From the NCBI GenBank assembly GCA_040755155.1, contig JBFMBP010000153.1:106010-170009 (forward strand): a stretch of 64,000 bases of DNA. Reading direction: 5' to 3'. Position numbers and translations under genes: made by a program. Source of the stretch: Candidatus Omnitrophota bacterium (GTDB lineage Bacteria > Hinthialibacterota > Hinthialibacteria > Hinthialibacterales > Hinthialibacteraceae). Position 1 is the stretch's first letter; the number at the start of each line of letters is the position of its first letter. The notes beneath the pieces were generated by a model. The model was not told where the DNA came from. It did not search any database and saw nothing but the letters and a program-made list of their open reading frames with translations. Positions 5,676 through 51,652 of the stretch are shown here, piece after piece.

Positions 5676-5688
5676 ATGAGGTCTAATT

Positions 5689-9287: not shown

Positions 9288-9371
9288 TGCGTTTCCCCCA
9301 TCATTCCTTTTAGAACCTGTTTTCTTATTGAAACTATTCCAAATTGAATTCTTCATGTCGCCAATGGCGGT

Positions 9372-12074: not shown

Positions 12075-12161
12075 CACATGTTTCCCTCGTTTCGAAAGTC
12101 GCCACAATTCCTTTTCAAATCTACCATTAATATATAAACTCTTGTTTTGAAGGTTATTTAT

Positions 12162-15100
12162 TTACTCTTGTGTTCCCGCGTCCGGTTCCCAGACGAGGCG
12201 AAGGCCGTTCGATGCGTATCCATAATCTAAAATTCCATAGGAATAATTCCGCGAATAATAACGATAGGCGGATCGGCAATCATAAATCGTTTTTCCGCCT
12301 CCTCGGCATACATGCAATATGCCTGTCGCAGCTCCAGCAGGATCGATGCAGATATCAACTTCATACGGACCATACCAATCTTGGCACCATTCGTAGACAT
12401 TCCCGCTCATGTCAAACAATCCCCAAGCGTTTGGGTGTCTTAAACCGACAGGATAATTGCAGCAATAGGGAATGCTTACGTAATAATTCATTCGTTTCGA
12501 TTGCTCGTTTGGCATCCATTCGTCATCGCCCCAATACAATCGCGTTGATGTTCCCGCTCGACATGCGTATTCCCATTCCGCTTCCGTCGGCAATCGAAAT
12601 TTACCTAATCCTAGCTGGCTCAACATTTCCGCATACGCTTGCGCCGCATACCACGATACGCTGTCGATGGGATAATTTCCCGAATAAGGATTGTACTGTG
12701 TTATCGAGCGCCATTGTTCTTGCGTCACTTCATATTTTCCAATATAAAAATCTTTTGTGATTGTTACTTCATGCTGCGTTTCATCCTCTCGCCGAAACTG
12801 ATCGATCATCGGACTTCCCATAAGAAACGTCCCGGCTTTTATGAGAATAAAATCAAGCGGCTTCGAATGCTCCGGCATATTCGGCAGCGGAATTCTTTGA
12901 ACGATCATTTCCGAATTCAAAATCCAATCGCTCTCTAAAACTCTTTTCACCCCGTCGGAAGATATTCCTACAATCCGAAAACGATAGCATTTGCCTTTTT
13001 GAGGACCTTCCCGATAAGCTGGAGAAGTATAAAATTCACTTTTTGGCGACCATTCAAAATATGAAATTTCGCCGCTTCCCGTACTTCCCAAAAATTCGTT
13101 GCCGTCCATCTCGCCGACTTTTATTCGAATATGATAGTCTTTAATCAAAGCAGAGTCTTCGCCGAAATTCCAAGCGATAAGAATGGCGCGCCCATCAGGA
13201 ACGCTGTCTTCTTTATTAAGCCAATCCATCGGCGGGGGAATATTTCCTTTCATCAAGTTCGTATGCGTAACAACCCGTCCGGCGGGAACGTCAGGAATAG
13301 GGATCGTCGGCATAGGCGCCGGTTCCTCTCCTTCTTGGAGCAATAGTACTGGCGCCGATTGCTCCAATATCATTTGCGGACCGGACGCAACGCCCAAAGG
13401 ATATACGCGAAATTGATAAGTATGATTGAATTGCGGGCCTTTTCGATATGCGGGATTAACATTTGGAGCATTAGAGCGCCAATCCCAACTTGTTTCGTCG
13501 GCGGAACAATGAGCCAAGAATTGATACCCCAATCCATCTTGGCGAACATAGACATCCCATCCTTGAACGCCAGTTATAACCGTCTCCCAAGAAATAGTGA
13601 GATTAATATCGTCAGGAAAATCAAAATCGCATTTACCCGATAAATCCTCACTAGCGCCAGGTTCGTCAAAAACATAAATCTCATATATTTTTCCCGTTTT
13701 TGTAGGCGTCGGCGTAGGAGGCAGTAGCGTAGGAGTTGGCATTGGCGTTGTTTTCTTCTCAATGTTATGAGGAGTTGAGTTGGGATAACCTGTATATAGA
13801 ACATCAGTGGTCGAAATCGATCCCCATTTCATGCCGATTTTATCAACATAATACATTACAAACGAATAAAGATGTCCAAATTCAGGACCATGGCGAAATT
13901 TCAAATCCACCCAAGGCGCATTGGGTTTCCATACAAAATGATAGGGCTTTTCGATTTGCCAAGTACTTCCTAGGTACTCTCTGTTCCGTAAATCTTTTGT
14001 ATTAACAAAAATCTGAAATTCTCGTAAATAATCTTTTTCTTCCGCCATATTCCACCACAATACCAATTCTCTTTCATCGGCGTAATCATAATCAGTCTTA
14101 TTACATAGATTTTCCTTCGAAAACTCGTCATCTGTAATAATCATTTCATAAAATGGAATTGCGAAATTTGGTATTGGAGTTGTTGGTTTTGTTGACGGGA
14201 GTGGAGTTTTAGTCGATGTTGGACGCGGGTAATCGTTTGTTCCCGACATAAATCGAATCGTATTGTAGTTATAATATCCGTATCCAGCAATGATATTGCT
14301 TTTTGTGACTGGAAAAACATGAAAATTATACATATTACCAAATGCAGGACCATTGCGATAAATTTTTGATACTAATTCAGATCCTGCTTTCCATGCAAAT
14401 ATATATGGCGGTTTGCTTGAGTTTGTATGGCCTAGATGTTCAAAACCGGATTTGTTTATTGATAGTTGTACATAATAATCTACAATATCCAGATTGGTTT
14501 TTTCTGATTCGTTGGGATTCCATCGTAAAACCAATTCTCGGTCATTTTCTGTATCGTAATCTAACCAACCGTCTAAATTTTCGTATGTATATTGATTATC
14601 CGTTACGATCATTCTATCGGAAGGCATAGATGAATTCCACGTTGGTGATGGAATAGGAAAATTTGGCGTCTCTAACGGCGTAGGCAATGACGTCGCGTCA
14701 AGCCATTTCAAATAATAAATAGGATGATTTCCTGAATATGTGTTTAATATTTTATTTGAGATCCTTGTTGCAATCACTCTTACATTAAAATAATATTTAA
14801 CGCCAAATTGCGGACCGTCTCTATATTTTTCATCGATTAAAGACGATCCAGGCGCCCAAATAATTTCAAACGGTTTTTCTCCACTGCCTGTATGACCTAG
14901 ATATTCTTCTTTTTGATTTTCGCTTGTTGATACATACGCCCGAAAATCCTTGCAGCCGTAATCTTCCGAATCCATTTCAAGATCCCATCGAATGACCAAC
15001 TCGCGTTCATCTTCTGAGTCGTAATCCACACGAATAAATTGCGTTAAATCCTCAAAAGAATAACGATCGTCCGTCACGATAATATTATTTACAGGAACGG

Positions 15101-15659
15101 TAGGAATAGGTGTAATCGGCGAGGGCGTTGGAGTAAGAGTTAACGCATTTACATATTGTACTTTATGGTTCATATCAAAAAACATAAAGTCACTTCCATC
15201 TTTGTCAATTAAAGCAGCTCGAAATTTATATTCATGGCCAAATTGCGGGCCATTCCGAAATTTCGGTTCAACGATTGGATTATCAGGAATCCATGAAAAT
15301 AAAAAAGGACAGTCGATTAGCTGAACGCTGCACAATAATTCAAATTTAGTACTACTCTGGTAATCGCGTACATAGATATGAAAATTTATTTTACAGGGTT
15401 CGGTCCCCACCCCTGGGAACTTCCACCATAACGCCAATTCCCTCTCGTTTTCAAGATCGTAATCCCCCAATCCACATAAATTTTCGGCGGAATATTTATC
15501 GTCAGTGACAATAACGCAATTATAATTAAAAACAGGTTTGGCGATAGGCGTCTCCGTATTCGCATCTGGCGTTCTTGTTGGAGTCGGAGTGAAGTCCTGC
15601 GCGTTGGCGATAATCGATTGGACAAATAATAACCCTGTCAAAAGATGGATTTTTTTCAT
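12162..15659 (-). CDS. Large secreted FN3-like x6 + C-terminal FGE-sulfatase-domain protein. Paralog 3 of 3.
   Basis: Signal peptide MKKIHLLTGLLFVQSIIANAQ. Six modules ending in the xGPxFGxxYxFxV signature. C-terminal FGE-sulfatase block (RLPTEAEWEYACRAGTSTRLYWG..NAWGLFDMSGNVYEWCQDW). The N-terminal half is markedly AT-rich. Confidence 0.8.
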   Translation of the reverse strand: MKKIHLLTGLLFVQSIIANAQDFTPTPTRTPDANTETPIAKPVFNYNCVIVTDDKYSAENLCGLGDYDLENERELALWWKFPGVGTEPCKINFHIYVRDYQSSTKFELLCSVQLIDCPFLFSWIPDNPIVEPKFRNGPQFGHEYKFRAALIDKDGSDFMFFDMNHKVQYVNALTLTPTPSPITPIPTVPVNNIIVTDDRYSFEDLTQFIRVDYDSEDERELVIRWDLEMDSEDYGCKDFRAYVSTSENQKEEYLGHTGSGEKPFEIIWAPGSSLIDEKYRDGPQFGVKYYFNVRVIATRISNKILNTYSGNHPIYYLKWLDATSLPTPLETPNFPIPSPTWNSSMPSDRMIVTDNQYTYENLDGWLDYDTENDRELVLRWNPNESEKTNLDIVDYYVQLSINKSGFEHLGHTNSSKPPYIFAWKAGSELVSKIYRNGPAFGNMYNFHVFPVTKSNIIAGYGYYNYNTIRFMSGTNDYPRPTSTKTPLPSTKPTTPIPNFAIPFYEMIITDDEFSKENLCNKTDYDYADERELVLWWNMAEEKDYLREFQIFVNTKDLRNREYLGSTWQIEKPYHFVWKPNAPWVDLKFRHGPEFGHLYSFVMYYVDKIGMKWGSISTTDVLYTGYPNSTPHNIEKKTTPMPTPTLLPPTPTPTKTGKIYEIYVFDEPGASEDLSGKCDFDFPDDINLTISWETVITGVQGWDVYVRQDGLGYQFLAHCSADETSWDWRSNAPNVNPAYRKGPQFNHTYQFRVYPLGVASGPQMILEQSAPVLLLQEGEEPAPMPTIPIPDVPAGRVVTHTNLMKGNIPPPMDWLNKEDSVPDGRAILIAWNFGEDSALIKDYHIRIKVGEMDGNEFLGSTGSGEISYFEWSPKSEFYTSPAYREGPQKGKCYRFRIVGISSDGVKRVLESDWILNSEMIVQRIPLPNMPEHSKPLDFILIKAGTFLMGSPMIDQFRREDETQHEVTITKDFYIGKYEVTQEQWRSITQYNPYSGNYPIDSVSWYAAQAYAEMLSQLGLGKFRLPTEAEWEYACRAGTSTRLYWGDDEWMPNEQSKRMNYYVSIPYCCNYPVGLRHPNAWGLFDMSGNVYEWCQDWYGPYEVDICIDPAGAATGILHVCRGGGKTIYDCRSAYRYYSRNYSYGILDYGYASNGLRLVWEPDAGTQE

Positions 15660-15939
15660 CGCAAGTTTCCCTCGCATCGGTCCTTAAGCCGATTCTCTTT
15701 TGGAGAAAACCTTCGTTCATACGTTCCCGGCGAGATGGAGCGCCCCCCGCCCGCCGCCTTGGGTAGAATGTCTTTTGGGGAATGGATGACGAATGGATCG
15801 CGGGACTTTTCGCCTATTCCCCCTTTGCTTTATATTATCACAAAAATAGATAACGTACATAATAACAATCTAAAATATAACATAAAAATACTAAAATCAG
15901 CCGAAACCAGCCGGGCGGGAATTTCCTTCACTCTCATAT

Positions 15940-15968: not shown

Positions 15969-16005
15969 CTTACTGCAGGAAGGATGCGCGCGAGGTGGAG
16001 TCATC

Positions 16006-16437
16006 ATGAAAAACGAATTTTGGACGCTGGATAACGATTCTTTATTCGAGCCGAGGGCGGCGCCGTTGGCGGGGCCGAGCGCGGCGGCGGGATTTCCCTC
16101 GCCCGCCGACGATTACGTGGAAAAGCAACTGGACTTGAACGAATACCTGATTCACAACCCGGCGGCGACCTTTTTCGTGCGGGTGTCGGGAGATTCCATG
16201 ACCGGCGCGGGCATCCACCACGGCGACATCCTGGTGGTGGACCGCTCGCTGGAGGCGGCGGCGGGGATGGTGGTGGTGGCGGCGGTGGAGGGAGAGATGG
16301 TGGTGAAGCGGCTGCGGCGTCTGGAAGGCAAACTGGCGCTGACGCCGGACAACGACGCCTATCCCCCCATCGAGATCGGCGAGGAGACGGAATGCGCCGT
16401 GTGGGGAGTAGTTACCCATGCCATCCATGCGGTCTGA
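16006..16437 (+). CDS. umuD: UmuD-like S24 peptidase (LexA C-terminal-domain family), error-prone polymerase accessory subunit
   Basis: Ser/Lys dyad context [23 protein letters not shown] and VVKRL. AAG cleavage-site region. 143 aa. Overlaps the downstream Y-family polymerase gene. Confidence 0.85.
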
Positions 16438-17779
16438 AGCGAAGCGGCCTCCGGCCATCGCGCTGGCGGACTGCAATAACTTTTACGCCTCCTGCGAGCG
16501 GGTGTTCCGGCCCCATCTGGAGGGAAAGCCGGTAGCGGTGCTTTCCAACAACGACGGCTGCGTGGTAGCGCGTTCCAACGAGGCGAAGGCGTTGGGAATC
16601 GCGATGGGCGAGCCGTTCTTCAAAGCGCGGGCGCTCTTGGAACGGGCGGGAGGACAATTCTTTTCCTCCAACTATGCGCTGTACGGCGATATGTCGCAGC
16701 GGGTGATGAGCGCGCTGGCTCAGTTCACGCCGGATTTGGAAATCTACTCCATCGACGAGGCCTTTCTCAACTTGACGGGAATCCCCGCCGGGGACGCGGC
16801 GGACTATGCGCGGCGCATCCGGCGGGTGGTGAAGCAATGGACGGGCATCCCCGTCTCCATCGGCGTCGCCGAGACGAAGACGCTGGCCAAGATCGCCAAC
16901 CGCATCGCCAAAAAACAGCGCCCGGACGGCGTATTCGACCTGCGAGCGGCGCCCTCCCGCGAGGAGACGCTGGCGTCGGTCGCCGTGGAAGACGTGTGGG
17001 GCATCGGACATCGCTACGCTTTCCGGCTGCGCCAGCGCGGCGTGGAAACGGCGTTGGCGCTGCGCGACGCCGACGAGCGCTGGATTCAAAAGGAAATGGC
17101 GATGGGCATTGTCGGCGTGCGGCTGGTGTACGAACTGCGGGGGATTCCCTGCCTGCCGTTGGATCTCTGCCCCTCGCCGAAGAAAGAGATCGTCTGCTCG
17201 CGCTCGTTCGGGAGGCCGGTGGAGTCGCTGGCGGAACTGAAGGAAGCCACGGCGGAGTACGTCAGCCGCGCGGCGGAAAAGCTGCGGCGGCAAGGATCGC
17301 TGGCGGGCGGCGTGGGGGTGTACCTGATGACCAATCCCTTTAAAAACGAACCGCAGTACTACAACTCGGCCTATATCCCCTTCCCCGCGCCGAGCAACAT
17401 CACGCCGGAGATGATTGCGTACGCGCTGGCGGCGCTGGAGAGGATGTACCGCCCCGGCTACCGTTACAAAAAAACGGCGGTTTTGCTCAGCGGGCTGGTT
17501 CCGGACAACGTGATTCAGACCAGTTTCTTCGACGAGGACGACGAAAGCCGCATGAGGGGAATGCGGCTGATGCGGACCGTGGATAAAATCAACGCCCGGC
17601 TGGGAGGAGGAGCGGTGAAATTCGGAGCGGCGGGCATCGCCCAAGAATGGCAAATGCGGCGGCGGCATCGCTCGCCCGCCTACACGACGCGCTGGGACGA
17701 ACTGGCCGTGGTGAAATCGGGCGACGGATGCTTCCGGCGGGCGGCGCGGAAACGGAAAAACAAACGGGAAAAACGATGA
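16418..17779 (+). CDS. umuC: Y-family DNA polymerase (UmuC / Pol V catalytic subunit)
   Basis: N-terminal [53 protein letters not shown] is a classic UmuC/DinB palm motif. 453 aa. Coupled to umuD by a 20-nt overlap. The start may be the second ATG at 16427. Confidence 0.85.
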
Positions 17780-17924
17780 ATAAAGCGAAAAATTCGGCGA
17801 ATCAATATCGTCGGGATTCGCTTCGTTCGACCAATCCTAATTCTAAAATCCTACGAAGCAAAAGAAAAACAATCCTCTCCCCCCACTTCCTGAATCGCGA
17901 TATAATGCTTCCAGGAGATGAACC

Positions 17925-18149
17925 ATGCTGAAAACATTCCATGCCAGTCTTTACCGCGATCGGAACGGCTATTCTGCTCAATGCTTGGAAGTGGACATCG
18001 TCAGCCAAGGCGCAACGAAAGAAGCCGCGCTCGCCAACCTTAAAGAAGCAGTCGAACTCTACTTCGAACCGCCTCAAGCTCATCCCATGCCGGAAATCCA
18101 CGCCTTCGAGGTTGACCTTGCCGCCGCTGAAACCGCTTCCGTTTCGTGA
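17925..18149 (+). CDS. hicB: HicB-family antitoxin (UPF0150 N-terminal domain only)
   Basis: MLKTFHASLYRDRNGYSAQCLEVDIVSQGATKEAALANLKEAVELYFE matches the HicB/UPF0150 fold. 74 aa. Directly precedes and overlaps a HicA-like ORF. Confidence 0.65.
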   Translation: MLKTFHASLYRDRNGYSAQCLEVDIVSQGATKEAALANLKEAVELYFEPPQAHPMPEIHAFEVDLAAAETASVS

Positions 18150-18342
18150 CGTTAAACGTAAACTCCCGTCCCTCGGCTTCCACCAAGCGTCTCAACGCGG
18201 CAGCCATGTCAAATTCATCAAAGAAACGCCTGACGGCGTTCGTGTTGTGATTGTTCCCATGCACAGAGAAATCGAGGTTGGAACTCTTAAAAACATCCTT
18301 CGTCTGGCGGGAATATCGACTGAAGAATTTATTGATCTCTAA
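18118..18342 (+). CDS. hicA: HicA-family mRNA-interferase toxin; TTG start inferred
   Basis: C-terminal 66 aa ..PFRDVKRKLPSLGFHQASQRGSHVKFIKETPDGVRVVIVPMHREIEVGTLKNILRLAGISTEEFIDL fits HicA (YcfA) including the conserved GSH. No ATG or GTG in frame near the domain start. TTG at 18118 sits 6 nt after GAGG. The long ORF from 17941 would overlap hicB completely and is rejected. Confidence 0.55.
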   Translation: MPPLKPLPFRDVKRKLPSLGFHQASQRGSHVKFIKETPDGVRVVIVPMHREIEVGTLKNILRLAGISTEEFIDL

Positions 18343-18409: not shown

Positions 18410-18988
18410 TTACTTCGCGAAGTTGAGAACTCCATCCACTTTGGAAACATCGCATATGTGCAAACTGCGTTTGCGGTTTTTTTCTCCCGCCGGACCTTCC
18501 CCTAAAGAGCAGGTGGGAATGACGATCTTGCCGTCCTGTCCCAGAATCAGACTGTATTTATAGTCGCCCACATCGATGCAATCCGGTTCCGCGCCCAGTT
18601 TGAAATAGGGGGGATTGGATTTATCGAGGCGAATCACGGCGCCGCCTTGAGACTTCTCCATGATCTCGTTCAATTCGAATAACTCGCAGATTTTCTCGCC
18701 CGGCTTGGTATGATTTTTATTCGCCAGGTAGGTCAGGCAATTGGCGGCGAGCGTCAAGCGCGCCGAACACTCAACGCCGCGCCACATAAATAAAGCGTCA
18801 AAATAATTGGGGATGGCGATCAAGGCGATGAGCAGCGCCGAAATCGCGAGGCAAACGATTTCCCATAGCTGCAATCCGAGAATCGTGCGCTTCTCTTCTC
18901 TCTCCCCACTCCGTTCGGGTATCGCCCGGACAGGGGCGTCGCTCGTCCGATCCTTTTGCGCTTCCACTGAGGCGTTCATTTCGTTCAT
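18410..18988 (-). CDS. Divergent type IV pilin/pseudopilin-like protein with a long leader, translationally coupled to the upstream TPR gene
   Basis: Segment G-LQLWE-IVCLAISALLIALIAIPNY parallels the prepilin consensus G-FTLIE...IAIPNF (Glu at +5, IAIPNY). Start ATG at 18988 overlaps the TPR stop (ATGA). GGAG RBS. The ORF-track N-terminal extension is rejected. Confidence 0.5.
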   Translation of the reverse strand: MNEMNASVEAQKDRTSDAPVRAIPERSGEREEKRTILGLQLWEIVCLAISALLIALIAIPNYFDALFMWRGVECSARLTLAANCLTYLANKNHTKPGEKICELFELNEIMEKSQGGAVIRLDKSNPPYFKLGAEPDCIDVGDYKYSLILGQDGKIVIPTCSLGEGPAGEKNRKRSLHICDVSKVDGVLNFAK

Positions 18989-21486
18989 GGTTTCTCCGCT
19001 GTATTTATTCTTTGCATTTCCAATCGGGCAAGATCGGAAAAAATCGTGTCGGGTAAATCCAACAAAAGTTGCCGGTATTTTGTCGCATCTTCCATGCGCA
19101 AGCCAGAGGGACTGGACATTTGCAATAATTCCAATTGCGTCATTCCCCGAATTGCCGGATTGTCTACGTCGAGAAGAAGGCGCCGCCATTCTTCGCTGGC
19201 TCCGGCGCGATCACCGGCGTCCCGCTTCAATCGGCCGATGTCGTACCTCGCCCATTCTTCGATATCTTCTCCGTATCCCTTGACGGCCAATTCTCTCATG
19301 ACGGGAACGGCGTCGGCGAAACGGCCTTGGAGCCGATACATGGCCGAGAGGCTATAGAGATCGAGTGATTCGCCCGTCAACGGCTCGATAGCCGCCAGGA
19401 TTTTCAGCGCATCGTTCGCCCAGCGCCAATCGTCGCTATTGTCCACAATATCCTGGAGCAGCAAGCGGGCGGCTTCCACATCTTTCAAAGCCAAATGGAT
19501 TTGCGCCAGGAGAAAACGAGCTTCGGAGCGCTGCGGTTGAAATTGGATATTTTCCAATAATTGCATCGCCGGTTCCAGGGACGAGAATTCCACCAACGCC
19601 TTGGCGCGCAAAAACAATAACCGATCCAGCGCCTCCGGGGACAAGGGCGGATTCACTGTGGAGGAAGATTGTTCCACTTTGCGAATCGCCGATAAAGCTT
19701 CGCCGGGCTGGAAAGCGTTCAATTGAACCGCCGCATAACGCAATAGCCGGTCCGCAATCAAAGAATCGAGAGGGAGGACGGATGTCGCTTCCAGAACCGG
19801 CGCTAAGGACGGCTTCATGAGTTGCGCCGCTTCGCGTTGATGGTCCAGGCCGGATTCGCCGCTGAGAATTTCCGCCAATTCCCGGTCGGCGGCGTTTCGA
19901 TAGAGGCTTTCTGAAGCCACCGCCTGCAGAAGAACAACCGCTCCATCGCGATCCCCCTGTTTCAGGGCGGATTGGGCTAACTGAATGCGGCATAAACCGG
20001 TATCGTCCGCCTGAGCGATGTCCTCCATATCCTTGCGGAATGGCGGTCGCGCGCCGAGTTCCAGCAATGGCCGCCGCACCCATTCTTTCACTTCCGCATA
20101 GGGACGCCCTGTGGCCAATTGCACTAAGGCGGCGACTAGCGGCTTGAGATCGGCGCAAGTTTCGGCGAATTGCAGAATAGCATAGGAGAGAGACTCCGGA
20201 TTGAATCCATTCGCTTGCGACGCTTTGTCGAAGACGGCGAAGGCGCGATCGTACATCCCCAACCGCAGAGCGGTTTCTCCCTCTTGGGAGACCAAAGGAG
20301 GAGGCGTCGAGTCTTTCCGTTCGTTCAATATTCCAGCCGCTGTTTGTTGATCCCCCAAAGCGAAGATTTTTTCCGCCGCTTTGAAAGCCGCCAAGGGATT
20401 GGCTGGCTGGAGATTCATCCAATCTTTCCAAAGTTGGACGGCTTCCTCTCTTTTCCCCGCATTGAATAACAGATGGCTCAGCTTTTCGCGGCGAGTGAAA
20501 TCGAGCGGCAGGAATTTTACGATTCGAGCCAGAATGGCGATCGCCTCTTCGGAGCTGCGTTGAAGATGGACGAGATCCACCCATTGATCCAAAAGTTCTA
20601 TCGGCGCATGGCCAATGTACTCGGCGGCAACCGTTGGGGGATCTTTCGCTTCTCCATTCATCAGGGTGGATTCGATCGCTTCCAAGGCTTCCTTCCCGCG
20701 ATTGGCCTTGAGCAAGAGGTCGGTCAGCAATAAGAGAAACGGATAAGGATCGCCGCCCGTTTTGGATAATCCGCTCAAACGCCGCAATAAATCGTCCAAT
20801 TTGTTCTGGGCGGAATAAACCTCCACCATCGGCGCAGCCTGCGCCCGGGCTTGTGCCGGAAAAACCGGCCAAAGGGTTTCATACAAGCCGCAGCTGCGAG
20901 AAAGGTCGCCTTGCAAGCGCAACAAATCGGCCAAATTCCACCCCAAAGCGTCGCGGTATTTGGGAATGGCGATGGCATAGAGATTATCGATCTCTTCCCG
21001 GCTCAAGGTCAGAAAAGCGTCGTTTTCGATAATCCGCATCAGGAGATGAACCTGGTAGGCTTCATCCGCCTTGGGAAACAGTTTCCAGCATTCCTTAACG
21101 GCGCGCCGATAAAAGCCCGCCCGCTCCAGGCAGCCAATATAGCGTTGCGAATAGTAATTCACCTTCAGGAACGCCGGATTCTGGGGATCGGGAGGAACGC
21201 CTTCCAACGTTTTGGCGTAATACTCCGCCGCCTGTTCGAAACGGCCTTGCGACTCCTCGATGATTCCCAGCTGGCTTAAAACGCCCGTTTTATCGGCGTA
21301 GCTTTTCCACTCTTGGGAATCGAGCATCCGCCGATAAAAATAAGAAGCGGTTACATAATCGGAGGAGACGAGGGCGGCATCGCCTTGAGATCGAAGATCG
21401 TCCAATTCGCCCCCCCATGCGAAAGAGCGGCTCCAAACGAGGACAAGCAGCAAGAATAGTCGCCCAAAGGCGTATTTTCGATTCAT
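18985..21486 (-). CDS. Secreted TPR-repeat protein
   Basis: Signal peptide MNRKYAFGRLFLLLVLVWSRSFAWG. Numerous TPR-like 34-residue helical repeats (A..Y...A....A..L patterns) across about 830 aa. Confidence 0.7.
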   Translation of the reverse strand: MNRKYAFGRLFLLLVLVWSRSFAWGGELDDLRSQGDAALVSSDYVTASYFYRRMLDSQEWKSYADKTGVLSQLGIIEESQGRFEQAAEYYAKTLEGVPPDPQNPAFLKVNYYSQRYIGCLERAGFYRRAVKECWKLFPKADEAYQVHLLMRIIENDAFLTLSREEIDNLYAIAIPKYRDALGWNLADLLRLQGDLSRSCGLYETLWPVFPAQARAQAAPMVEVYSAQNKLDDLLRRLSGLSKTGGDPYPFLLLLTDLLLKANRGKEALEAIESTLMNGEAKDPPTVAAEYIGHAPIELLDQWVDLVHLQRSSEEAIAILARIVKFLPLDFTRREKLSHLLFNAGKREEAVQLWKDWMNLQPANPLAAFKAAEKIFALGDQQTAAGILNERKDSTPPPLVSQEGETALRLGMYDRAFAVFDKASQANGFNPESLSYAILQFAETCADLKPLVAALVQLATGRPYAEVKEWVRRPLLELGARPPFRKDMEDIAQADDTGLCRIQLAQSALKQGDRDGAVVLLQAVASESLYRNAADRELAEILSGESGLDHQREAAQLMKPSLAPVLEATSVLPLDSLIADRLLRYAAVQLNAFQPGEALSAIRKVEQSSSTVNPPLSPEALDRLLFLRAKALVEFSSLEPAMQLLENIQFQPQRSEARFLLAQIHLALKDVEAARLLLQDIVDNSDDWRWANDALKILAAIEPLTGESLDLYSLSAMYRLQGRFADAVPVMRELAVKGYGEDIEEWARYDIGRLKRDAGDRAGASEEWRRLLLDVDNPAIRGMTQLELLQMSSPSGLRMEDATKYRQLLLDLPDTIFSDLARLEMQRINTAEKP

Positions 21487-21698
21487 AAAAACATCTATTT
21501 CCAATCCGGCGACAGGTTTCGGCTATCAGCTAGGAAGGCGGATTGATATTCGCGATCAATCATAAAATAAAAACGAATCAAGCTGCCCAAAGTCATGGGC
21601 GCCGATTCGAAAAATTTTTCCGTTAAAACAGATATAAATAGCGGCTTTAGGGACAGTTTACAAGCCGGATAACGAATAACGGCGAAAACGAATAAGGA

Positions 21699-22565
21699 TT
21701 AATGCTGCAAGAGGACGGCGCGGTTGATGTTGCGCAAGACGCATTCCGTGGTGCTGCCCAACACGAGTTCGCGGACGCGGGCATGACCGTAAGCGCCCAT
21801 CGCTACTAAATCGACATCATCCTCCTTGGCGGCGGCGACAATCTGTTCCGCCGGATCGCCTTGGCGGATTTCCAGAATATCGCGCAGCTGATAGGCGTCC
21901 AGATATTTCAAGGCCTTGTCCGCCACCTGGCGCGCTTCGATTTCGTCTTCATGCACAACCAGCAGTTTCATCTTGATGCTGTTATGGGGGCAACAAGCGT
22001 AGAGATGGGCCGCCGAACGCAGCGTCTTCACGGAATATTCGCCGCCGTCGAAGCAAACCAATATCCGTTGCAGCGTGCGGTAGGAATGCGGCGTTACGAT
22101 AACGGGGATATCCGAGCGGCGAATCACGCTTTCCAGATTCGATCCCAAAAGGCCGGTGCTGAAATCCGCTCCCGCGCCGCGTTGGCCGAGAAAGAGAAGG
22201 TCGCAGCACTTGGCTTCTTCCAGAATCATGTCCGTTACGATCCCTTCCCGGATTTCGCAACGGGCGGTTAGACCCGCCTTGCGGCATTCTTCCTGAATGC
22301 GATTCAATAGGTTTTCCGCGCGCTCCCATTGTTTGGAAAGCAATTCGTTCTTTTCGAAAACCGATTCGTCGAACACGGGCGGAAAATCGGCCGTCGGATA
22401 ATAATACGGGTAGACGATCGCAAATTCCTTGCGATCCACCACGCTGAGAATCGTAATCTGCGCTCCCAGCCATTTCGAATATTCCAGGGCGTATCTCATG
22501 CAAACTTCGCTGTAACGAGATGCATCAACCGCTAATAGAACGGATTTATACATGACTCCCTCCAC
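21699..22565 (-). CDS. Tandem-domain universal stress protein (UspA family)
   Basis: Two Usp domains: N-terminal MYKSVLLAVDASRYSEVCMRYALEYSKWLGAQITILSV and a second ..RILVCFDGGEYSVKTLRSAAHL.. with the ATP-binding-like G-x2-G-x9-G(S/T) region. 288 aa. Confidence 0.8.
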   Translation of the reverse strand: MEGVMYKSVLLAVDASRYSEVCMRYALEYSKWLGAQITILSVVDRKEFAIVYPYYYPTADFPPVFDESVFEKNELLSKQWERAENLLNRIQEECRKAGLTARCEIREGIVTDMILEEAKCCDLLFLGQRGAGADFSTGLLGSNLESVIRRSDIPVIVTPHSYRTLQRILVCFDGGEYSVKTLRSAAHLYACCPHNSIKMKLLVVHEDEIEARQVADKALKYLDAYQLRDILEIRQGDPAEQIVAAAKEDDVDLVAMGAYGHARVRELVLGSTTECVLRNINRAVLLQH

Positions 22566-22779
22566 CTCCCTTCCAAAGTGCGCCGCCGTCTTCTATAGAA
22601 TATTGTAACTGATTTTTCCCATTTTTCCTTCCGTAAAACTCAATTAGCCACTATAAAAAAATAGCTGGAAAAGGGCGAATACTCATCCTATTGCGATTTC
22701 TTAAAAATGAAATTATCCTTACCAAGGGGAAAACCGGCATCCAATCATTCAATCGCGCCGATTTTTAAAGGAATATCCC

Positions 22780-23991
22780 GTGCTAAAACCGCTGGTGAGA
22801 GAAGAACGCGCTAAAATCAACGAACCATGCCTATGGCGCCATGCGGACCAAGAAGAGGTTTTCCACGGATTTATCATCAATGAAAGCGCTACGGGAGTTT
22901 TAGTCGAAACGGACCAGATCCACGAAATCGGTCAAATCATTTGCATTTTGGTTGCTTTCGAGGGGGAAGCCCTGCCTAATCCGTCGAAAATGAATGCCGA
23001 GGCGATCTTCCAACATCCGCTCGCGAGAAAAGGGAAGATCGTCCGGCTGGAAGAACCGCACCGCATCGGAGTTCAATTCGACAAGGAAGAAAACGCCGGC
23101 GCCGAATATCGGCGCTGGATCCGAGGCGATTCCTGCATTACGACGTTCTTCTTCCCAGATAAAGGAGCTATCTCCCTTTCCGGCAAGATCAACCTGGAAA
23201 CAAGCGCCTTGCTGCAAAAAATCGTCAATCTGGAAGCCAAAAAACGCAAGGAAATAATTCTCTCCTGCCGCGATGTGCGGGAGGCGTTTACGGCGGCCAT
23301 CACCGTTTTCCGCACGGCGGTTCTGACCATCGCGAAATCGGGCGCCGATTTGACGTTCATCAACAGCGGCCATGCGGAAACCGCGGAAAAAATCGGCAAA
23401 ACCATCGAATTCGAGGCCGGACGATGCCTGAATCCCCAAGAACGTTACGCCATCGCGCCTCGCGATCCGATCGAAATCCTCAAATCCAAGCAATCCTTAC
23501 AACCTTCTGGCGAAAAAAGCCAATCCGCCAAGCCAACGCCTTCTTCCTCGAAAGAGACTCCCTGCAAGGAAGCCGCTCCTTGCGCCTTAATCGTTGGGAA
23601 AATCCCATCGGCGGCGCGCCGCTTGGCGGCGCCATTGGAACGCATGAACGTTCCCCTAAGAATCGTTCATAGAGAAGAGGAAATCGTCAACGCTATTCTT
23701 CAGACGAATCCTGTCTTTATTATTCTTGATATCGACATCGAGACCAATCATTACGTCTATTTGCTCAACCAAATCGTCAAGCATGAAATCCCTTCTTTGC
23801 CTCCGGTGTGCATCGTCGGCCCCGCCATCTTGGAAAAATTGGTAAAGGAGGCGATCAAACTGCCGTTGAAATTTTATATGAACAAGCCTTTCAGCGAACG
23901 GGATTATACGCTTTCTCTGAAATGCGCCTCCCTGGAAGGCATTCTGTCGAATTTCGATTTGGAGAACGAGTGGGATATTCGAAAATTATGA
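22780..23991 (+). CDS. Multidomain signalling protein: PilZ-like N-terminal domain (NxSxxG present, RxxxR degenerate), central STAS-like domain, C-terminal receiver-like (pseudo-REC) domain
   Basis: GTG start with AAGGA RBS. INESATG matches the PilZ (D/N)xSxxG motif 25 aa after REERAK. Middle region resembles SpoIIAA/STAS. C-terminus ..PVFIILDIDIE...YMNKPF resembles CheY-like REC but lacks the N-terminal acidic pair. Confidence 0.5.
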   Translation: MLKPLVREERAKINEPCLWRHADQEEVFHGFIINESATGVLVETDQIHEIGQIICILVAFEGEALPNPSKMNAEAIFQHPLARKGKIVRLEEPHRIGVQFDKEENAGAEYRRWIRGDSCITTFFFPDKGAISLSGKINLETSALLQKIVNLEAKKRKEIILSCRDVREAFTAAITVFRTAVLTIAKSGADLTFINSGHAETAEKIGKTIEFEAGRCLNPQERYAIAPRDPIEILKSKQSLQPSGEKSQSAKPTPSSSKETPCKEAAPCALIVGKIPSAARRLAAPLERMNVPLRIVHREEEIVNAILQTNPVFIILDIDIETNHYVYLLNQIVKHEIPSLPPVCIVGPAILEKLVKEAIKLPLKFYMNKPFSERDYTLSLKCASLEGILSNFDLENEWDIRKL

Positions 23992-24362
23992 TTTTTCCAA
24001 AAGAATACCGTCATGGAGATTATTACGTTGTCGAGTTCGAAGGGAAATGCGGCGCTATCGACGCTCCCTTTTTAGACGAGTTGTTCTCCGGCATCGCCAG
24101 CCAAAACGCCTACTTTATGGCATTGGATTTCACCCGCATTTCCGGCTTCCACTTTTCGCTCTTCGGTCCTCTCGTCAAATTGCGGAATACTCTGATCTCC
24201 GCTGGCGGCGCGTTGATCCTGGCGGGATTCCCGCCGGATGCGCGGTATACTTTGCAGGCGATCAAAATGGGCGAAGGGTTTGACTTTCGAGAATCTTTGG
24301 CTTCTATTCTTCAAGAATACCCTTCCGAAGAGGAACCGGATCGAGAATCGTCCGAAGATTAA
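23988..24362 (+). CDS. STAS-domain protein (anti-sigma-factor antagonist-like)
   Basis: ATG at 23988 overlaps the upstream stop (ATGA), implying coupling. YYVVEFEGKCGAIDAPFLDELFSGIASQNAYFMALDFTRISGFHFSLFGPLVKLRNTLISAGGALILAG is a typical SpoIIAA/STAS pattern. 124 aa. Confidence 0.7.
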   Translation: MIFPKEYRHGDYYVVEFEGKCGAIDAPFLDELFSGIASQNAYFMALDFTRISGFHFSLFGPLVKLRNTLISAGGALILAGFPPDARYTLQAIKMGEGFDFRESLASILQEYPSEEEPDRESSED

Positions 24363-24381: not shown

Positions 24382-25110
24382 GTGAAGAATCTTTCTTTAA
24401 ATCCCATCTTTTCCCTTCCCGCGCCTGGCGGCGCTAGGGAAGCTCTGGATTTCAGGCGCATCGCCGAATGGCGGAAATCGCTCTTCCCGGAAACGGCGGA
24501 AACCTTGCTGGAACTGACGGCGAACCGGGCGGGACTTTCCGGATTTTTGCCGGACAATCCTCCCATCGATCTGCTGGACGAGTTGATGGAAAAAGCGGAA
24601 AAAAATCGCTGCCGCTTCGTCTCTCTTTTTATTCCCATCACTCTGAATCAAACCGGCGAAAAGTTAGAAGAGGAAATTTCCATTGTTAATGGATGGACCG
24701 ATCTGGCGGCGTATATGGGCATACCGTTAGCCAGATTGAGGCTGGCGGAAATGTCCAGCGATTCTTTTCCATCGGCGCAAAACGCCTTGTCTCAAATCGT
24801 CAATTACCTAAGCGATGCGGATATCGTCGCGTCCCTTTCCATCCCGGATTTGCCTATCGCTCAGCTTCTGGATTTCGTCGAAAAGCATCGCGACAAAGAG
24901 CATCCCCTCCTTGGCTGCGATTGGGAATTGGAGACGGAGCCGCAACAGCCGCTGGCGGAATGCGGCATTCCGTCGGCGATGACAGCGTCCATCCACATTT
25001 GTTTCGCCCAGCGTCCCAACCGCGAAGACTTGGAGCAACGCCTTCGTGAAATCGAATCCCATTTCGCAGAAGCTCCTCCGCCGGTCATCCTATCCTTCAA
25101 TGTTGAATGA
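24382..25110 (+). CDS. Hypothetical protein (start uncertain; GTG at 24382 or upstream ATG at 24238)
   Basis: Long ORF in frame 1 downstream of the STAS gene. No recognisable domain. The 24238 start would overlap the STAS gene by 125 nt. Confidence 0.35.
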   Translation: MKNLSLNPIFSLPAPGGAREALDFRRIAEWRKSLFPETAETLLELTANRAGLSGFLPDNPPIDLLDELMEKAEKNRCRFVSLFIPITLNQTGEKLEEEISIVNGWTDLAAYMGIPLARLRLAEMSSDSFPSAQNALSQIVNYLSDADIVASLSIPDLPIAQLLDFVEKHRDKEHPLLGCDWELETEPQQPLAECGIPSAMTASIHICFAQRPNREDLEQRLREIESHFAEAPPPVILSFNVE

Positions 25111-25387
25111 AGAGAAAGTAGGATGGGTCGCGTTTTTTGACCCATCATTATTTATTCGAAGGGGGGTGGCAAAGGCAAGGTTGTTTCTGCCCTTGAAACA
25201 TCTCTAATTTTCCATCATTCATCATTAAGCATTAAAAAAGCGAAGAGACAATATCAAATGAAATATACTAATGGTCTCAAAAAACTTTGCGTAGTTGGAA
25301 TCGCCCGGTATCATATTTATTATTATTGCCCGCCCAGCGCATTGCGTTCGGCGGAAGACTGTCCTAAATAACAGGAAAATATTCAGC

Positions 25388-27269: not shown

Positions 27270-28799
27270 TCAATACGTCACGATAGAAACGGCGTCTTGA
27301 ATCTCCTCCATGCCTTCCGCATCTTCGGGAATACAGCTGAAACAAATCCGAATAATCATCGCCGTACTCTGGCCATTATCCGGTGCGCCGGGAGTCAAAT
27401 CGTATTGGAAAGAGTAAAGATCTTTCATAGCATTAACCGCATCCTGCGATTTCTTAATCCTGTTTTCAATGACAACCTTATTTTCGCCCGGTATAGGTTC
27501 GACAATGACATCTACTCGTTTTTGTTGAATTCCTTTTTCCGTCATTTCCTTGATTTTAGATAATTCTTTTTCGGATTTGTCTACTTCGATTTTTTTCAAT
27601 TCGATTTCTATATTATTCTGTTGTTTTTCCAGTTCTTTCCTTTTTGCGGTGGATTCTTCATCAGTACGGTCTTTCAATTCATCCATGGAACTTCGAATTT
27701 TCGCCAATTCCAATTGCAGAGTATCGATTAGTAATCTTCTTCCCGCTTCCTCTTGCTTTTTTATGACATCTTCCGGTTGCCGATCTTCCTCCGATTTCGC
27801 TTTCTTGGATTCCGAATCGGCTTTGAGCAGCGATTTCAAATCTTCCAATTCTTTTTTCAATTGTTCTACTTCGTCATTGTCTTTTGCGCCGGAACTCTGG
27901 AACCTAGCGCCATATCCCCCGCCTGTGGAAAATCCACCATACGCTCCACTACCATAAACGCCGCCCTGTCTCCGAGGAGTTATATTTCTATACATGCGCG
28001 TTAGATCGAACGGCCCGTTCAGGCTTGCGCCTTCGATGACGACGGTAATGGTTTCGTTGGGATTGAAGCCTTCGAAGCGTTTGCCGTATTTGGCCAGAAC
28101 GTTCAATATCCTGGTTTTCAACCGTTCGACTTTGTTTTCGTCGTAACGGTCGCTCGATTGAGGCGAGGCTTCTTTTACTTCGATCTTATCGAGAATTTCA
28201 TCCCATTCGTCCTTTTCATGGCTTTCTTCCGCCTCTTCCTTCTTTTCGCCGTTTTCGCGGTGGAGAGGAAAATCGACGCCCAGCGTGAACAACACGCCCA
28301 GACCGGGAATCCAATACCCCTGGCAACCCTTGGAGAAGAAGCCTTTGGACTTATAACTTTCGCCCAACGCCTCTTGGAGACGGGAATCGATTATCCGGCT
28401 CATCACTTCGATAGCGATTTTGGTTTTTTTGAGAAATTCGGGATCCGGTTGAAAATCAGGGCCGGGAATGCCGCCGCTAAAACCAACCATTCCACCGCCT
28501 GGCAGCCCCATGCCCATACCGCCCATCATACCTCCCATGCCTTTCCCCATTCCTCCAGCTGGAGCGCCTATCATTCCGCCCATGCCATACCCCATGCCAT
28601 TCATAACTCCGCCGCGTTGCTGCTTCGGCTGGGGAGCGGGCTGAGGCGCGGCCGCATACCCAGGCGAAGGCGGAACTACCGGCGCGGCTTCCTGAGCGGA
28701 CGCGGCGACTGCCGGCTCCTCCGGAGCCACTTGAGCCAAACCATAGAAACCTAATCCCGCCAACAATGAGAGAGACAATACCAATAGCATTCTTTTCAT
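27270..28799 (-). CDS. Secreted hypothetical protein with a Met/Gly-rich low-complexity tract, coiled-coil Lys/Glu-rich region and Cys-containing C-terminal domain; last gene of the ECF sigma operon
   Basis: Signal peptide MKRMLLVLSLSLLAGLGFYGLAQVA. Tract GMGYGMGGMIGAPAGGMGKGMGGMMGGMGMGLPGGGMVGF. Long charged coiled-coil segment. 509 aa. 31-nt gap after the anti-sigma gene. Confidence 0.6.
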   Translation of the reverse strand: MKRMLLVLSLSLLAGLGFYGLAQVAPEEPAVAASAQEAAPVVPPSPGYAAAPQPAPQPKQQRGGVMNGMGYGMGGMIGAPAGGMGKGMGGMMGGMGMGLPGGGMVGFSGGIPGPDFQPDPEFLKKTKIAIEVMSRIIDSRLQEALGESYKSKGFFSKGCQGYWIPGLGVLFTLGVDFPLHRENGEKKEEAEESHEKDEWDEILDKIEVKEASPQSSDRYDENKVERLKTRILNVLAKYGKRFEGFNPNETITVVIEGASLNGPFDLTRMYRNITPRRQGGVYGSGAYGGFSTGGGYGARFQSSGAKDNDEVEQLKKELEDLKSLLKADSESKKAKSEEDRQPEDVIKKQEEAGRRLLIDTLQLELAKIRSSMDELKDRTDEESTAKRKELEKQQNNIEIELKKIEVDKSEKELSKIKEMTEKGIQQKRVDVIVEPIPGENKVVIENRIKKSQDAVNAMKDLYSFQYDLTPGAPDNGQSTAMIIRICFSCIPEDAEGMEEIQDAVSIVTY

Positions 28800-28830
28800 C
28801 GTTTTTTACCTCGCTTTTTAAGGTTGAATT

Positions 28831-29496
28831 TCAATTGTTCTTTTTGCTTTCGAAACCCGGGCTTGCGTCATTCGCGGAATAGGGGATCGGATTGTATGCG
28901 AGCGCGTAGATATTGTTGAGGCGGTCGTCGATCGCCCGCATCAGATCGACGGAGAAATCCTTCATCTTCCGCTGCGTTAATTCCTGATCCACTTTGCGGA
29001 AAGAAGCCAACAGCATCATCGAACGCTCCATAGCGTCCTGGCGGTCGGCGACCGTCTGGCCTTGGGAAACCATCTGCTCCGCCGTTTTCACAAGTTGATC
29101 GACGGCGGGTTGGTAATTTCGTTGAAATTCGGCGCGAATTTCCTCGCGCACCGCCGAGGCGTCCGCCGCCGGTCCCAGCGCCAACCGCACATCGCCCACT
29201 TGCAAAACCACGCCTTGGGAAACGCAGAATATCGCCGCCAGGCAGGCCGCCGCCGCAAGCCATCGCCCCCATCGCCGAGGCGGCGTGGAGGCTTTCAAAC
29301 TGGCGCGCAAAGGCAAAACGGAAGCGGGCGCCTCATCCAAGCAATTCAGCAAGCGATGAGTTCTCTCGATTTCGCCATACTCCGCCTTCGCTTCGGGATT
29401 CTGATCCAGCCACGCTTCGAAACGGCGGCGATCCTCGCCGGAAATTTCTCCATAGAGCATCTCCACCATGCGTTGTTCCAATTCCTCGCGAGTCAT
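28831..29496 (-). CDS. Anti-sigma factor (single-pass membrane; N-terminal anti-sigma domain)
   Basis: N-terminal MTREELEQRMVEMLYGEISGEDRRRFEAWLDQNPEAKAEY is typical of ECF anti-sigma N-domains. TM helix WLAAAACLAAIFCV. Sits 24 nt downstream of the ECF sigma gene. Confidence 0.7.
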   Translation of the reverse strand: MTREELEQRMVEMLYGEISGEDRRRFEAWLDQNPEAKAEYGEIERTHRLLNCLDEAPASVLPLRASLKASTPPRRWGRWLAAAACLAAIFCVSQGVVLQVGDVRLALGPAADASAVREEIRAEFQRNYQPAVDQLVKTAEQMVSQGQTVADRQDAMERSMMLLASFRKVDQELTQRKMKDFSVDLMRAIDDRLNNIYALAYNPIPYSANDASPGFESKKNN

Positions 29497-29520
29497 CCTT
29501 TTTCCTCCTGACGGCGATGA

Positions 29521-30150
29521 TTACGCCGTCTGAAAACAATCCGCTTCCAGAACGCCAAGCCGCTTCAATTCCCTCCTCATGGCGTCCAATCCGCGATAGA
29601 CGCGGGTTTTAATCGTACTTTCCGGCAAATGAAGAACTTCCGCTATATCCTTGAAACTCAGGTTTTCGAAATGGCGCATCACCAGGGCGATGCGCATCTC
29701 GCCGGGAAGGAGGTCGAGAGCCTCCTCGATGCGGCGTCCGATTTCGCGGCGGGAAGCTTCGTCGCGCGAAAGGCCGTCCGCCGCCGCCAGCGATCGCTCG
29801 CAATTTTCCTCATCGTTCGAATCGATAGGCCGCATGACGGGACTCCGTTTTCTGGCAAATTTATCGATGACTAAATTCGTAGCGATGCGGTAAAGCCAGG
29901 CTTGAAACGAACCGCCCGGCGCAAAGGAACGGCGATGATTGTAAATGCGAAGAAACAACTCCTGGCGCAGGTCTTCCGCTTCGTCCCTATTGCCGACGCA
30001 GCGGAGAAAATAGTTGAGCATCCGCTTGTCCCAACGTTGAACTAAAAGTTCAAACGCCAATAGAGAGCCATTTCCGCTTTCAACGATCAATTGTTCGTCT
30101 GAGAGCAACATCCCGTTCATCCATCGTGAAATTGGGTCTTCAATGAACAT
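29521..30150 (-). CDS. ECF-subfamily RNA polymerase sigma-70 factor
   Basis: Region 2 (EDLRQELFLRIYNHRRSFAPGGSFQAWLYRIATNLVIDKFAR) and region 4 HTH (LSFKDIAEVLHLPESTIKTRVYRGLDAMRREL). Start could also be the internal Met of MNGM. Confidence 0.85.
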   Translation of the reverse strand: MFIEDPISRWMNGMLLSDEQLIVESGNGSLLAFELLVQRWDKRMLNYFLRCVGNRDEAEDLRQELFLRIYNHRRSFAPGGSFQAWLYRIATNLVIDKFARKRSPVMRPIDSNDEENCERSLAAADGLSRDEASRREIGRRIEEALDLLPGEMRIALVMRHFENLSFKDIAEVLHLPESTIKTRVYRGLDAMRRELKRLGVLEADCFQTA

Positions 30151-49918: not shown

Positions 49919-50034
49919 TCCATTCCAATATTTATCCTAATTTTTATCTATATGAGCCTCATGCAAAATTCCATTATTCCTCCTCCAAGCCTGGGCTGAT
50001 CTTTACCCCTAAGCAGGAGAGATTAATCAAGAAT

Positions 50035-50166
50035 GACGATCCGGCAAAAAGTATTGATGATGATATCGGGCGACAACCTATTGGGGGTGCAGGCATCTTG
50101 CCTGCGGGATATCTTGTGCAGGCAAGATGCCTGCACCCCCAAAAATTGACTTTTTGCCGCTTCAAC
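50035..50166. mobile_element. MITE-like structured repeat, copy 2 (variant with a long perfect central hairpin)
   Basis: Shares both ends with copy 1 (GACGATCCGGCAAAAAGTATTGATG ... ATTGACTTTTTGCCG). The centre forms GGGGGTGCAGGCATCTTGCCTGC / GCAGGCAAGATGCCTGCACCCCC. Confidence 0.7.
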
Positions 50167-50713: not shown

Positions 50714-50844
50714 GACGATCCGGCAAAAAGTATTGATGTTGCTGTCGAGTGACTACCTATTGGGGTGCAGGCATCTTGCCTGCAGTATATCTCGTGCAGG
50801 CTGGAAACCCGCACCACAAAAAATTGATTTTTTGCCGTTCCGTC
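50714..50844. mobile_element. MITE-like structured repeat, copy 3 (nearly identical to copy 1)
   Basis: Only a few mismatches relative to 33539-33669 over about 125 nt, including the terminal GACGATCCGGCAAAAA / TTTTTGCCGTTCCGTC. Confidence 0.7.
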
Positions 50845-51628: not shown

Positions 51629-51652
51629 TAAACTTAATCTTCAGCAAGATAA

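Follow-up and report, generated by a model that had tools for sequence, protein, structure and literature searches.

We describe a three-gene operon, A-B-C, in a 64,000-nucleotide stretch of metagenomic DNA (hereafter the window; positions 106,010 to 170,009 of contig JBFMBP010000153.1, NCBI assembly GCA_040755155.1) from an uncultured bacterium labelled Candidatus Omnitrophota. Judged by sequence profiles and a predicted structure, its first gene encodes a fusion of a PilZ-like barrel, a STAS domain and a pseudo-receiver, and its second gene encodes a STAS partner with no accompanying kinase, which is a new arrangement of known parts. We give a probability of about 35% to the reading that the three gene products form the cytoplasmic regulatory arm of a conserved, lineage-restricted gene cluster and work through a phosphorylation-independent STAS-STAS complex. 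In window positions, gene A lies at 22780..23991 on the + strand (403 aa, GTG start; NCBI product 'PilZ domain-containing protein'), gene B at 23988..24362 on the + strand (124 aa, a single-domain STAS protein; NCBI hypothetical protein AB1656_24245) and gene C, the third gene of the operon, at 24382..25110 on the + strand (242 aa, GTG start; NCBI AB1656_24250).

The three-domain architecture of A was supported by profile and structure comparisons across its family. When 1.84 billion cluster representatives were searched exhaustively with HMMER, 18 clusters of relatives were returned at E<1e-10, 12 of them full length (360-415 aa, 26-34% identity). All came from uncultured "Omnitrophota"-labelled or unclassified metagenome-assembled genomes (MAGs), and by this search the family is rare and confined to a small set of uncultured bacteria. 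Word-index searches were nearly blank, with A finding only itself, B one close relative and a concatenated B+C profile two matches; the family was recovered through the exhaustive search together with pattern scans of genomes and metagenomes. Against Pfam, window A scored just above the curated cutoff for PilZ (PF07238, aa 7-105; 23.3 bits, cutoff 22.5) and below the cutoffs for Response_reg (aa 270-375; 18.8 bits, cutoff 30.2) and STAS (aa 131-196; 13.1 bits). When the family members were scanned singly, REC was detected in 11 of 18, STAS in 10 and PilZ in 7, the PilZ count being taken at E<0.1. The AlphaFold model of A, built on the family alignment, had a mean predicted local distance difference test score (pLDDT) of 82.7; most of each domain scored >90, and residues 234-262 formed a disordered linker. 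A Foldseek search of the PDB with this model matched STAS, REC and PilZ structures, all with probability 1.0. The original prediction had read A as a PilZ-like/STAS/pseudo-receiver fusion, and the Pfam, AlphaFold and Foldseek results, together with the pairing of A and B in 13 loci, bear it out.

The PilZ-like domain is predicted to be a six-stranded beta-barrel (22798..23094, + strand; aa 7-105), as identified by Pfam, Foldseek and invariant columns. Its strands in the model (11-21, 28-35, 39-43, 53-58, 82-92 and 95-100) have a pLDDT of ~90, and its Foldseek matches, with probability 1.0, include the PilZ domains of BcsA (4i86; template modelling (TM) score 0.67 on the target) and of the structure 4xrn with bound cyclic di-GMP (c-di-GMP). 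A 14-sequence alignment of the A family contains 24 invariant columns, nine of which fall in PilZ ligand-motif positions (R7, E8, E9 and R10; N34, E35, S36, A37 and G39). In the model R7-R10 lie in the loop before strand 1 and N34-G39 at the turn between strands 2 and 3. The latter motif reads NESA[TS]G across the family, the position after A37 varying between Thr and Ser, and the INESATG sequence first noted as a PilZ motif in window A was located at these residues. The distance from position 11, the slot of the second motif Arg, to N34 is 23 residues, compared with 22 in MapZ. The equivalence of the motifs rests on position, spacing and fold, because profile searches against the PDB and MapZ were negative. 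Four further Arg residues are invariant in the family (R83, R89, R112 and R115); together with the invariant motif positions, they suggest a conserved site for an anionic ligand, and nucleotide (c-di-GMP) binding by A is plausible.

The STAS-like domain of A (23104..23448, + strand; aa 109-223) was placed by AlphaFold topology and by Foldseek matches to the anti-sigma antagonists 4hyl, SpoIIAA (1tid) and RsbV (6m36). Its family profile matched PDB sequences weakly (SulP STAS 3mgl, E 0.06; RsbV, E 0.08). T171 occupies the position of SpoIIAA S58 and RsbV S56, in a column (T/T/G/A/R/S/G/A/G/P/A/P/P) that is not conserved; in the adjoining column, 8 of the 13 members have Thr. The next segment is a Ser/Pro/Lys-rich linker (23464..23577, + strand; aa 229-266), which is predicted to be disordered (pLDDT <50 for 234-262) and is variable in length in the family alignment. 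The C-terminal domain (23584..23934, + strand; aa 269-385) was delimited by its family profile and by Foldseek. The profile gave a residue-level alignment to PDB receivers (E 1.5e-8), and the Foldseek matches included PhoP, FrzS, CheY and Spo0F, with TM scores on the target of 0.75-0.81 for PhoP, CheY and Spo0F. The slot of the acidic pair holds G273/K274 (family consensus Ala-x) and that of the receiver Thr holds G347, in a Gly-Pro that is invariant in the family; the phospho-acceptor slot is kept as D317 (Glu in two family members) and the conserved Lys as K369-P370. Because the acidic pair and the Thr are lost family-wide, this domain is classed as a pseudo-receiver. The residues picked out beforehand, IILDIDI and NKPF, do contain D317 and K369-P370, and the acidic pair is indeed lost.

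By profile comparison, protein B consists of one STAS domain and belongs to the SpoIIAA/TM1442 type. A profile of nine B sequences matched Thermotoga maritima TM1442 (E 1.5e-7) and SpoIIAA (E 9e-5 and 1.4e-4) in the PDB, with RsbS as a very weak match (9o4r, E 0.9). Pfam STAS was detected in six of the nine homologues (best E 1.6e-10), and window B alone scored 18.5 bits, below the cutoff of 22.6. For one homologue, NCBI gives the name 'STAS domain-containing protein' and JGI 'anti-anti-sigma regulatory factor'. In HMMER alignments the phospho-Ser of SpoIIAA (S58) and TM1442 (S59), at the N-terminus of helix 2, lands on F56 of B; over the nine homologues the residues at this place are F, F, N, A, L, L, L, L and V, with Ser or Thr in none of them. 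Since the F56 column lacks Ser, B is predicted not to be controllable by the classical kinase/phosphatase cycle. Consistent with this, no HATPase_c_2 (RsbW-type) or SpoIIE (PP2C) domain was found in the ~45 window open reading frames (ORFs) of at least 150 aa, nor in the Pfam lists of genes called around four related loci (L005, L006, L016 and L018). Both the stand-alone STAS identity of B and the lack of an adjoining RsbW-type kinase or PP2C phosphatase, as proposed in the original prediction, were thereby upheld.

The two genes are tightly linked. They overlap at an ATGA junction (23988-23991), where the ATG of B (23988-23990) shares bases with the TGA of A (23989-23991), and NCBI deposits proteins identical to A and B, in agreement with the coupling first proposed between the 403-aa protein and the 124-aa STAS protein. 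In the closest relative, a JGI metagenome contig (L001), the copies of A and B are 80% and 87% identical to those of the window and the 4-nt overlap is kept. The ratio of nonsynonymous to synonymous substitution rates (dN/dS) against these copies is 0.21 for A and 0.09 for B, and on account of these ratios both are taken to be genuine genes under purifying selection; inside A, the ratio is 0.15-0.19 in the three domains and a relaxed 0.56 in the inter-domain linker. Loci were collected through look-ups of the exact proteins and through scans of GTDB genomes and of metagenomes. Among them, B lies directly after A in all 13 distinct loci with downstream sequence, the junctions varying between an 11-nt overlap and a ~28-nt gap, and C follows B in 11 of the 13 (it is absent in L001 and in L004/L013). 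By this synteny A-B-C is a conserved operon that faces a conserved cluster of TPR, pilin-like and sigma-54 activator genes, so that the two-gene unit proposed at first was too small.

The terminator pattern of the window agrees with a three-gene unit. C starts 20 nt after B, its start having been set from homologues at the same place as the NCBI call; no strong terminator was seen between A, B and C, and a terminator-like hairpin (9-bp stem, 25122-25146) with a T-rich tail stands 12 nt past the stop of C (25122..25156, + strand). A sigma-70 scan of the intergenic region 22566-22779 gave no promoter-like site. A sigma-54-dependent promoter of A-B-C was considered and rejected: a strict scan of the 700 nt upstream of A in 12 loci gave no -24/-12 GG/GC match of at least 9 of 12, and relaxed scans of 14 loci gave no site at a consistent position. 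On these scans the operon is not visibly sigma-54 dependent.

Protein C was characterized mainly by its predicted structure. The AlphaFold model (pLDDT 85.7, predicted TM score 0.86) shows eight strand-helix units, and Foldseek matched UlaE (3cqj, E 2e-7, TM score 0.66) and also 3tva, IolI and L-ribulose 3-epimerase, so that in the model C is a divergent or degenerate xylose-isomerase-like TIM barrel. C had no Pfam or NCBIfam match, and eight members of its family had no Pfam match at E<=1 and no AP_endonuc_2 signal. The invariant residues are W30, P60, I62, D66, P85, E98, I99, S100, G104, W105, D107, A109, Y111, Y142 and G178, and conserved stretches are found in a loop (DNPPIxxxD) and in helix 93-112 (EISxxDGWxDLAxY). 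Members of the xylose-isomerase-like superfamily carry Glu/Asp/His/Glu metal ligands on strands 4-7. Because these strands in C (116-121, 149-153, 177-183 and 201-208) hold no invariant acidic residue or His, C is probably not a canonical enzyme.

The cluster that A-B-C faces is encoded on the opposite strand. A tandem universal stress protein (21699..22565, - strand; Pfam Usp E 6e-36) is divergent from A and stands at the matching place in seven related loci by tblastn synteny, among them L003, L009-L012 and L014. It is followed by an 839-aa TPR protein with a signal-peptide-like N-terminus (18985..21504, - strand; Pfam TPR families), whose orthologues, 36-42% identical, occupy the same position in L005-L011, L014, L016 and L018, and by a 192-aa pilin-like membrane protein (18410..18988, - strand), which has an ATGA overlap with the TPR stop. 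The pilin-like protein was aligned with related sequences and with a genuine pseudopilin encoded in the window, and profile matches to it were found in 11 loci. The family, which has no Pfam or NCBIfam model, retains the Trp-Glu at +5 and the IPNY/F signature by which type IV pilin N-termini are known, lacks their Gly at -1, and has six conserved Cys and a ~35-aa N-terminal extension; the protein may be unprocessed and membrane-anchored. TPR, pilin-like and NtrC-type sigma-54 activator genes lie divergently upstream of A in nine distinct loci, wherever the contig reaches, the exceptions being the window, which lacks the activator there, and L012; NCBIfam assigns the activator to a generic NtrC/AtoC type. 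A PEP-CTERM system was unsupported, the TPR protein scoring only 36 bits against PrsT (cutoff 312). PADLOC defence models matched none of A, B, C, the TPR protein and the pilin-like protein, and an Rfam scan of the window found no c-di-GMP riboswitch.

Several known systems resemble parts of this arrangement. In the RsbRST stressosome, RsbR joins a sensor to a STAS domain, the STAS-only RsbS comes next, and RsbT is the kinase. The order of A and B is alike in all 13 loci, a sensor-STAS gene followed by a STAS-only gene, and by analogy suggests a STAS-STAS hetero-complex. Unlike in RsbRST, the third gene encodes the TIM-barrel protein C and not an RsbT kinase, the phospho-site columns of the STAS domains of A and B are not conserved, and A has an additional C-terminal pseudo-receiver and a PilZ-like sensor in place of a globin-like one. 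In the known characterised examples, partner switching runs on Ser phosphorylation of a STAS protein. With the Bacillus modules SpoIIAA-SpoIIAB-SpoIIE and RsbV-RsbW-RsbU the operon shares a SpoIIAA/TM1442-type B and a STAS fold in A that matches SpoIIAA and RsbV; it differs in that B has no phosphorylatable Ser (F56), that no RsbW/SpoIIAB kinase, PP2C phosphatase or anti-sigma factor for it was found in the window or among conserved neighbours, and that one of its two STAS domains belongs to a larger protein with sensor-like and receiver-like parts. In Myxococcus, FrzS is a pseudo-receiver in which the receiver fold is used for protein interaction. FrzS was among the fold and profile matches of the A receiver and likewise lacks a full phospho-acceptor pocket, whereas A has other partner domains and other substitutions, with the Asp/Glu and Lys-Pro kept and the acidic pair and Thr lost.

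Known systems of c-di-GMP signalling are alike in part, too. The PilZ receptors MapZ/PA4608, YcgR and BcsA share with A the six-stranded barrel and an Arg motif and N-x-S-x-x-G turn at canonical positions and spacing, whereas the A family has REER[R/K] (REERAK in window A), an invariant Glu at the 'h' position and, in the model, no C-terminal helix. PilZ-REC fusions have already been described, and STAS appears nowhere in the text of that PilZ survey (Galperin & Chou, 10.1101/814665); in the library searched, we found no paper joining PilZ, 'STAS domain' and receiver. Three STAS switches that act upstream of diguanylate cyclases are HsbA-HsbD and SiaC-SiaD of Pseudomonas aeruginosa and BgrV-BgrR of Sinorhizobium meliloti, in which STAS phosphorylation is essential (PMC8457831). 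They tie STAS proteins to c-di-GMP signalling, as is proposed for A-B, and have an output that is not a sigma factor. In those systems, however, c-di-GMP is the output, while in A it would be the input, and A-B has no linked cyclase, kinase or phosphatase.

From these comparisons a mechanism can be outlined. A would be a sensor-scaffold: its PilZ-like barrel would take up a nucleotide second messenger, c-di-GMP being the likeliest, and its STAS domain would pair with B as the sensor-STAS protein RsbR does with the STAS-only RsbS. The pseudo-receiver would serve as a protein-protein docking surface, possibly for the receiver domain of the sigma-54 activator that the divergent operon of related genomes encodes. 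Ligand binding, and not Ser phosphorylation, would shift which partner is held or released, the candidates being B, C or the activator; the linked system would in turn be acted on by the pseudo-receiver or by the partner set free. The outcome would be a tuning of the divergently encoded, secreted-TPR/pilin-like envelope system. We infer the identity of the ligand, the contact between A and B and the output, and apply the label of partner switching to A-B by analogy.

A number of findings weigh against this proposal. First, the PilZ assignment is marginal by sequence (23.3 bits against 22.5); the profile of the PilZ region of the A family had no match at E<=10 among PDB sequences, and hhalign of this profile with the MapZ sequence gave nothing (probability 0.1). 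Second, both ligand motifs deviate. Window A does not have RxxxR, since it reads R7-E-E-R10-A11-K12, with R7 and R10 invariant in the family; the motif had been called degenerate, which is right for window A, although most relatives have RxxxR/K (12 of the 14 members carry Arg or Lys at position 11, whereas window A and the closest relative carry Ala). The 'h' of [D/N]hSxxG, a highly conserved hydrophobic residue in PilZ domains (Galperin & Chou, 10.1101/814665), is an invariant Glu in the A family, while N34, S36 and G39 are invariant. Third, the model of A has no C-terminal helix after the barrel: strand 95-100 runs straight into the STAS hairpin 109-124, and the sole barrel helix is a short one (73-77) within an insertion. 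Fourth, the proposed contact joins two STAS domains that are only distantly related (hhalign probability 30%). Lastly, C is not obligatory, because it is missing in two loci; the window has no sigma-54 activator beside the pilin-like gene; the relaxed sigma-54 scans found no consistently placed site upstream of A; and no switching target, either an anti-sigma factor or an enzyme, was identified.

The distance between the two STAS domains also bears on their origin. The STAS domain of A and the B family align in hhalign with an E value of 5.4e-4 at that probability and are 12% identical, and a recent duplication as their common source was rejected on these values.

The motif deviations are what a different reading would make most of, namely that the PilZ-like barrel no longer binds c-di-GMP and is a pure adaptor or takes another ligand, with A-B-C as a constitutive scaffold or assembly factor for the TPR/pilin-like envelope proteins. 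We find this possible but somewhat doubtful. The Glu at 'h', the REERAK of window A, the missing C-terminal helix and the lack of sequence-profile similarity to solved PilZ proteins all suit it, as does the conserved linkage to the pilin-like gene, and non-binding PilZ domains are documented, as in the type IV pilus systems of Xanthomonas and Pseudomonas (10.1101/814665). In a degenerate site, however, invariance of both motif positions at ~30% identity would be surprising, and 12 of 14 members have Arg or Lys at position 11. A direct contact in assembly is also unlikely, because the TPR and pilin-like proteins are periplasmic or secreted, whereas neither a signal peptide nor a membrane segment occurs in A, B or C. 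On the side of ligand binding, the boldest form of our preferred reading would be that the variant PilZ pocket, acidic in both motifs, makes c-di-GMP or a related nucleotide the direct input of a kinase- and phosphatase-free STAS-STAS switch, with ligand binding replacing Ser phosphorylation and the output directed to a sigma-54 activator and the TPR/pilin-like system; we consider it unlikely.

Less weight still can be put on the view that the module controls an enzyme or transporter and not transcription, with C as an active sugar-phosphate isomerase/epimerase-like enzyme, or an unlinked transporter ATPase under STAS control, and A as the ligand-sensing regulator. STAS proteins do control transporters, as in the action of MlaB on MlaF and in the STAS domains of SulP proteins. 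The confident xylose-isomerase-like TIM-barrel fold predicted for C, its place in the operon in 11 of 13 loci, the SulP STAS 3mgl as the best meaningful PDB match of the A-STAS profile, and the documented direct regulation of enzymes by STAS proteins (PMC8457831; 10.64898/2026.04.08.717354) would all fit. We nevertheless hold it to be quite unlikely: strands 4-7 of C have no invariant Glu, Asp or His, its invariant residues being in helix 93-112 and a loop; it gives no Pfam AP_endonuc_2 signal; it is absent in the closest relative L001 and in L004/L013; and no conserved transporter lies in the neighbourhood. Very unlikely, finally, is a classical phosphorylation switch in which an RsbW-type kinase and a PP2C encoded elsewhere act on A (T171 or the adjoining, mostly-Thr column) and not on B. 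In its favour, T171 of window A stands at the SpoIIAA S58/RsbV S56 position next to a column with Thr in 8 of 13, the contig is at least 177 kb long and our search covered 64 kb of it, and some STAS proteins are acted on by distant kinases (for example All4160 of Anabaena; 10.64898/2026.04.08.717354). Against it, none of the nine B homologues carries Ser or Thr at the site, the T171 column is not conserved, the conserved neighbourhoods hold no kinase or phosphatase, and a Thr or Ser cap at a helix N-terminus is common without phosphorylation.

If the phosphorylation-independent STAS-STAS complex is real, a PilZ-fused STAS domain with a non-phosphorylatable partner would be a second way to run a partner switch and a new class of PilZ output, and c-di-GMP as the input of A-B would reverse the known wiring, in which the STAS switch stands upstream of diguanylate cyclases. 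It would also offer a first functional handle on a conserved, unannotated cluster of six to seven genes in uncultured "Omnitrophota"-labelled bacteria, three of whose families (in effect A, together with C and the pilin-like protein) have no Pfam model. Its practical use is restricted, since the organisms are uncultured, the family is very small and every functional step is inferred.

Several other observations were made in the window and related loci. At the place that the sigma-54 activator occupies in nine related loci, the window has a patch of 61.5% GC (16001-18342) in surroundings of ~50%, with genes for a Y-family DNA polymerase (IMS/DinB, 16418-17779, + strand) and a HicB-like/HicA pair (17925-18342, + strand). 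No remnant of the missing activator was found by tblastn, and the patch looks like an insertion or replacement event. The only sigma-54 activator of the window is a 549-aa GAF-domain protein of NorR/NifA-like type (37375-39024, - strand), which shares 35% identity in its AAA+ region with the activators linked to the cluster elsewhere. In L012, a 1.9-Mb MAG contig, the A homologue falls into four ORF fragments and only 43 aa of B are left (9965-12404), while C is intact and the TPR, pilin-like and activator genes are not upstream; A and B seem to be decaying there as a unit, unless the breaks are assembly frameshifts.

Further away, an FG-GAP repeat protein is followed by an extracytoplasmic function (ECF) sigma factor, a FecR-like anti-sigma factor and a type II pseudopilin (N_methyl + T2SSG) at 48377-53253 (+ strand). 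The wider neighbourhood is partly conserved, because the same FG-GAP/ECF/FecR-like/pseudopilin set occurs near the A-B-C cluster of a distant relative (L018, 1-3459). Another ECF sigma factor (29521-30150) with an anti-sigma-like protein (28831-29496, weak DUF4880 match) lies within 27270-30150 (- strand), followed by a 509-aa protein that matches no Pfam family; its N-terminal half is of low complexity and rich in Gly/Met, and its C-terminal half is Lys/Glu-rich and resembles a coiled coil. The window has no tRNA genes, and its only Rfam match is an Acido-Lenti-1 RNA (50214-50258, - strand; 47.7 bits, gathering score 37). Three tandem paralogues of 910, 911 and 1171 aa (6624-15677, - strand), each ending in a formylglycine-generating enzyme-like (FGE-sulfatase) domain, lie in a region of unusually low GC (39-46%). 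At 2544-6573 (+ strand), a 1043-aa SNF2-family helicase with DUF3670 is followed by a 294-aa SWIM zinc-finger protein, a pair that is recurrent and poorly understood.

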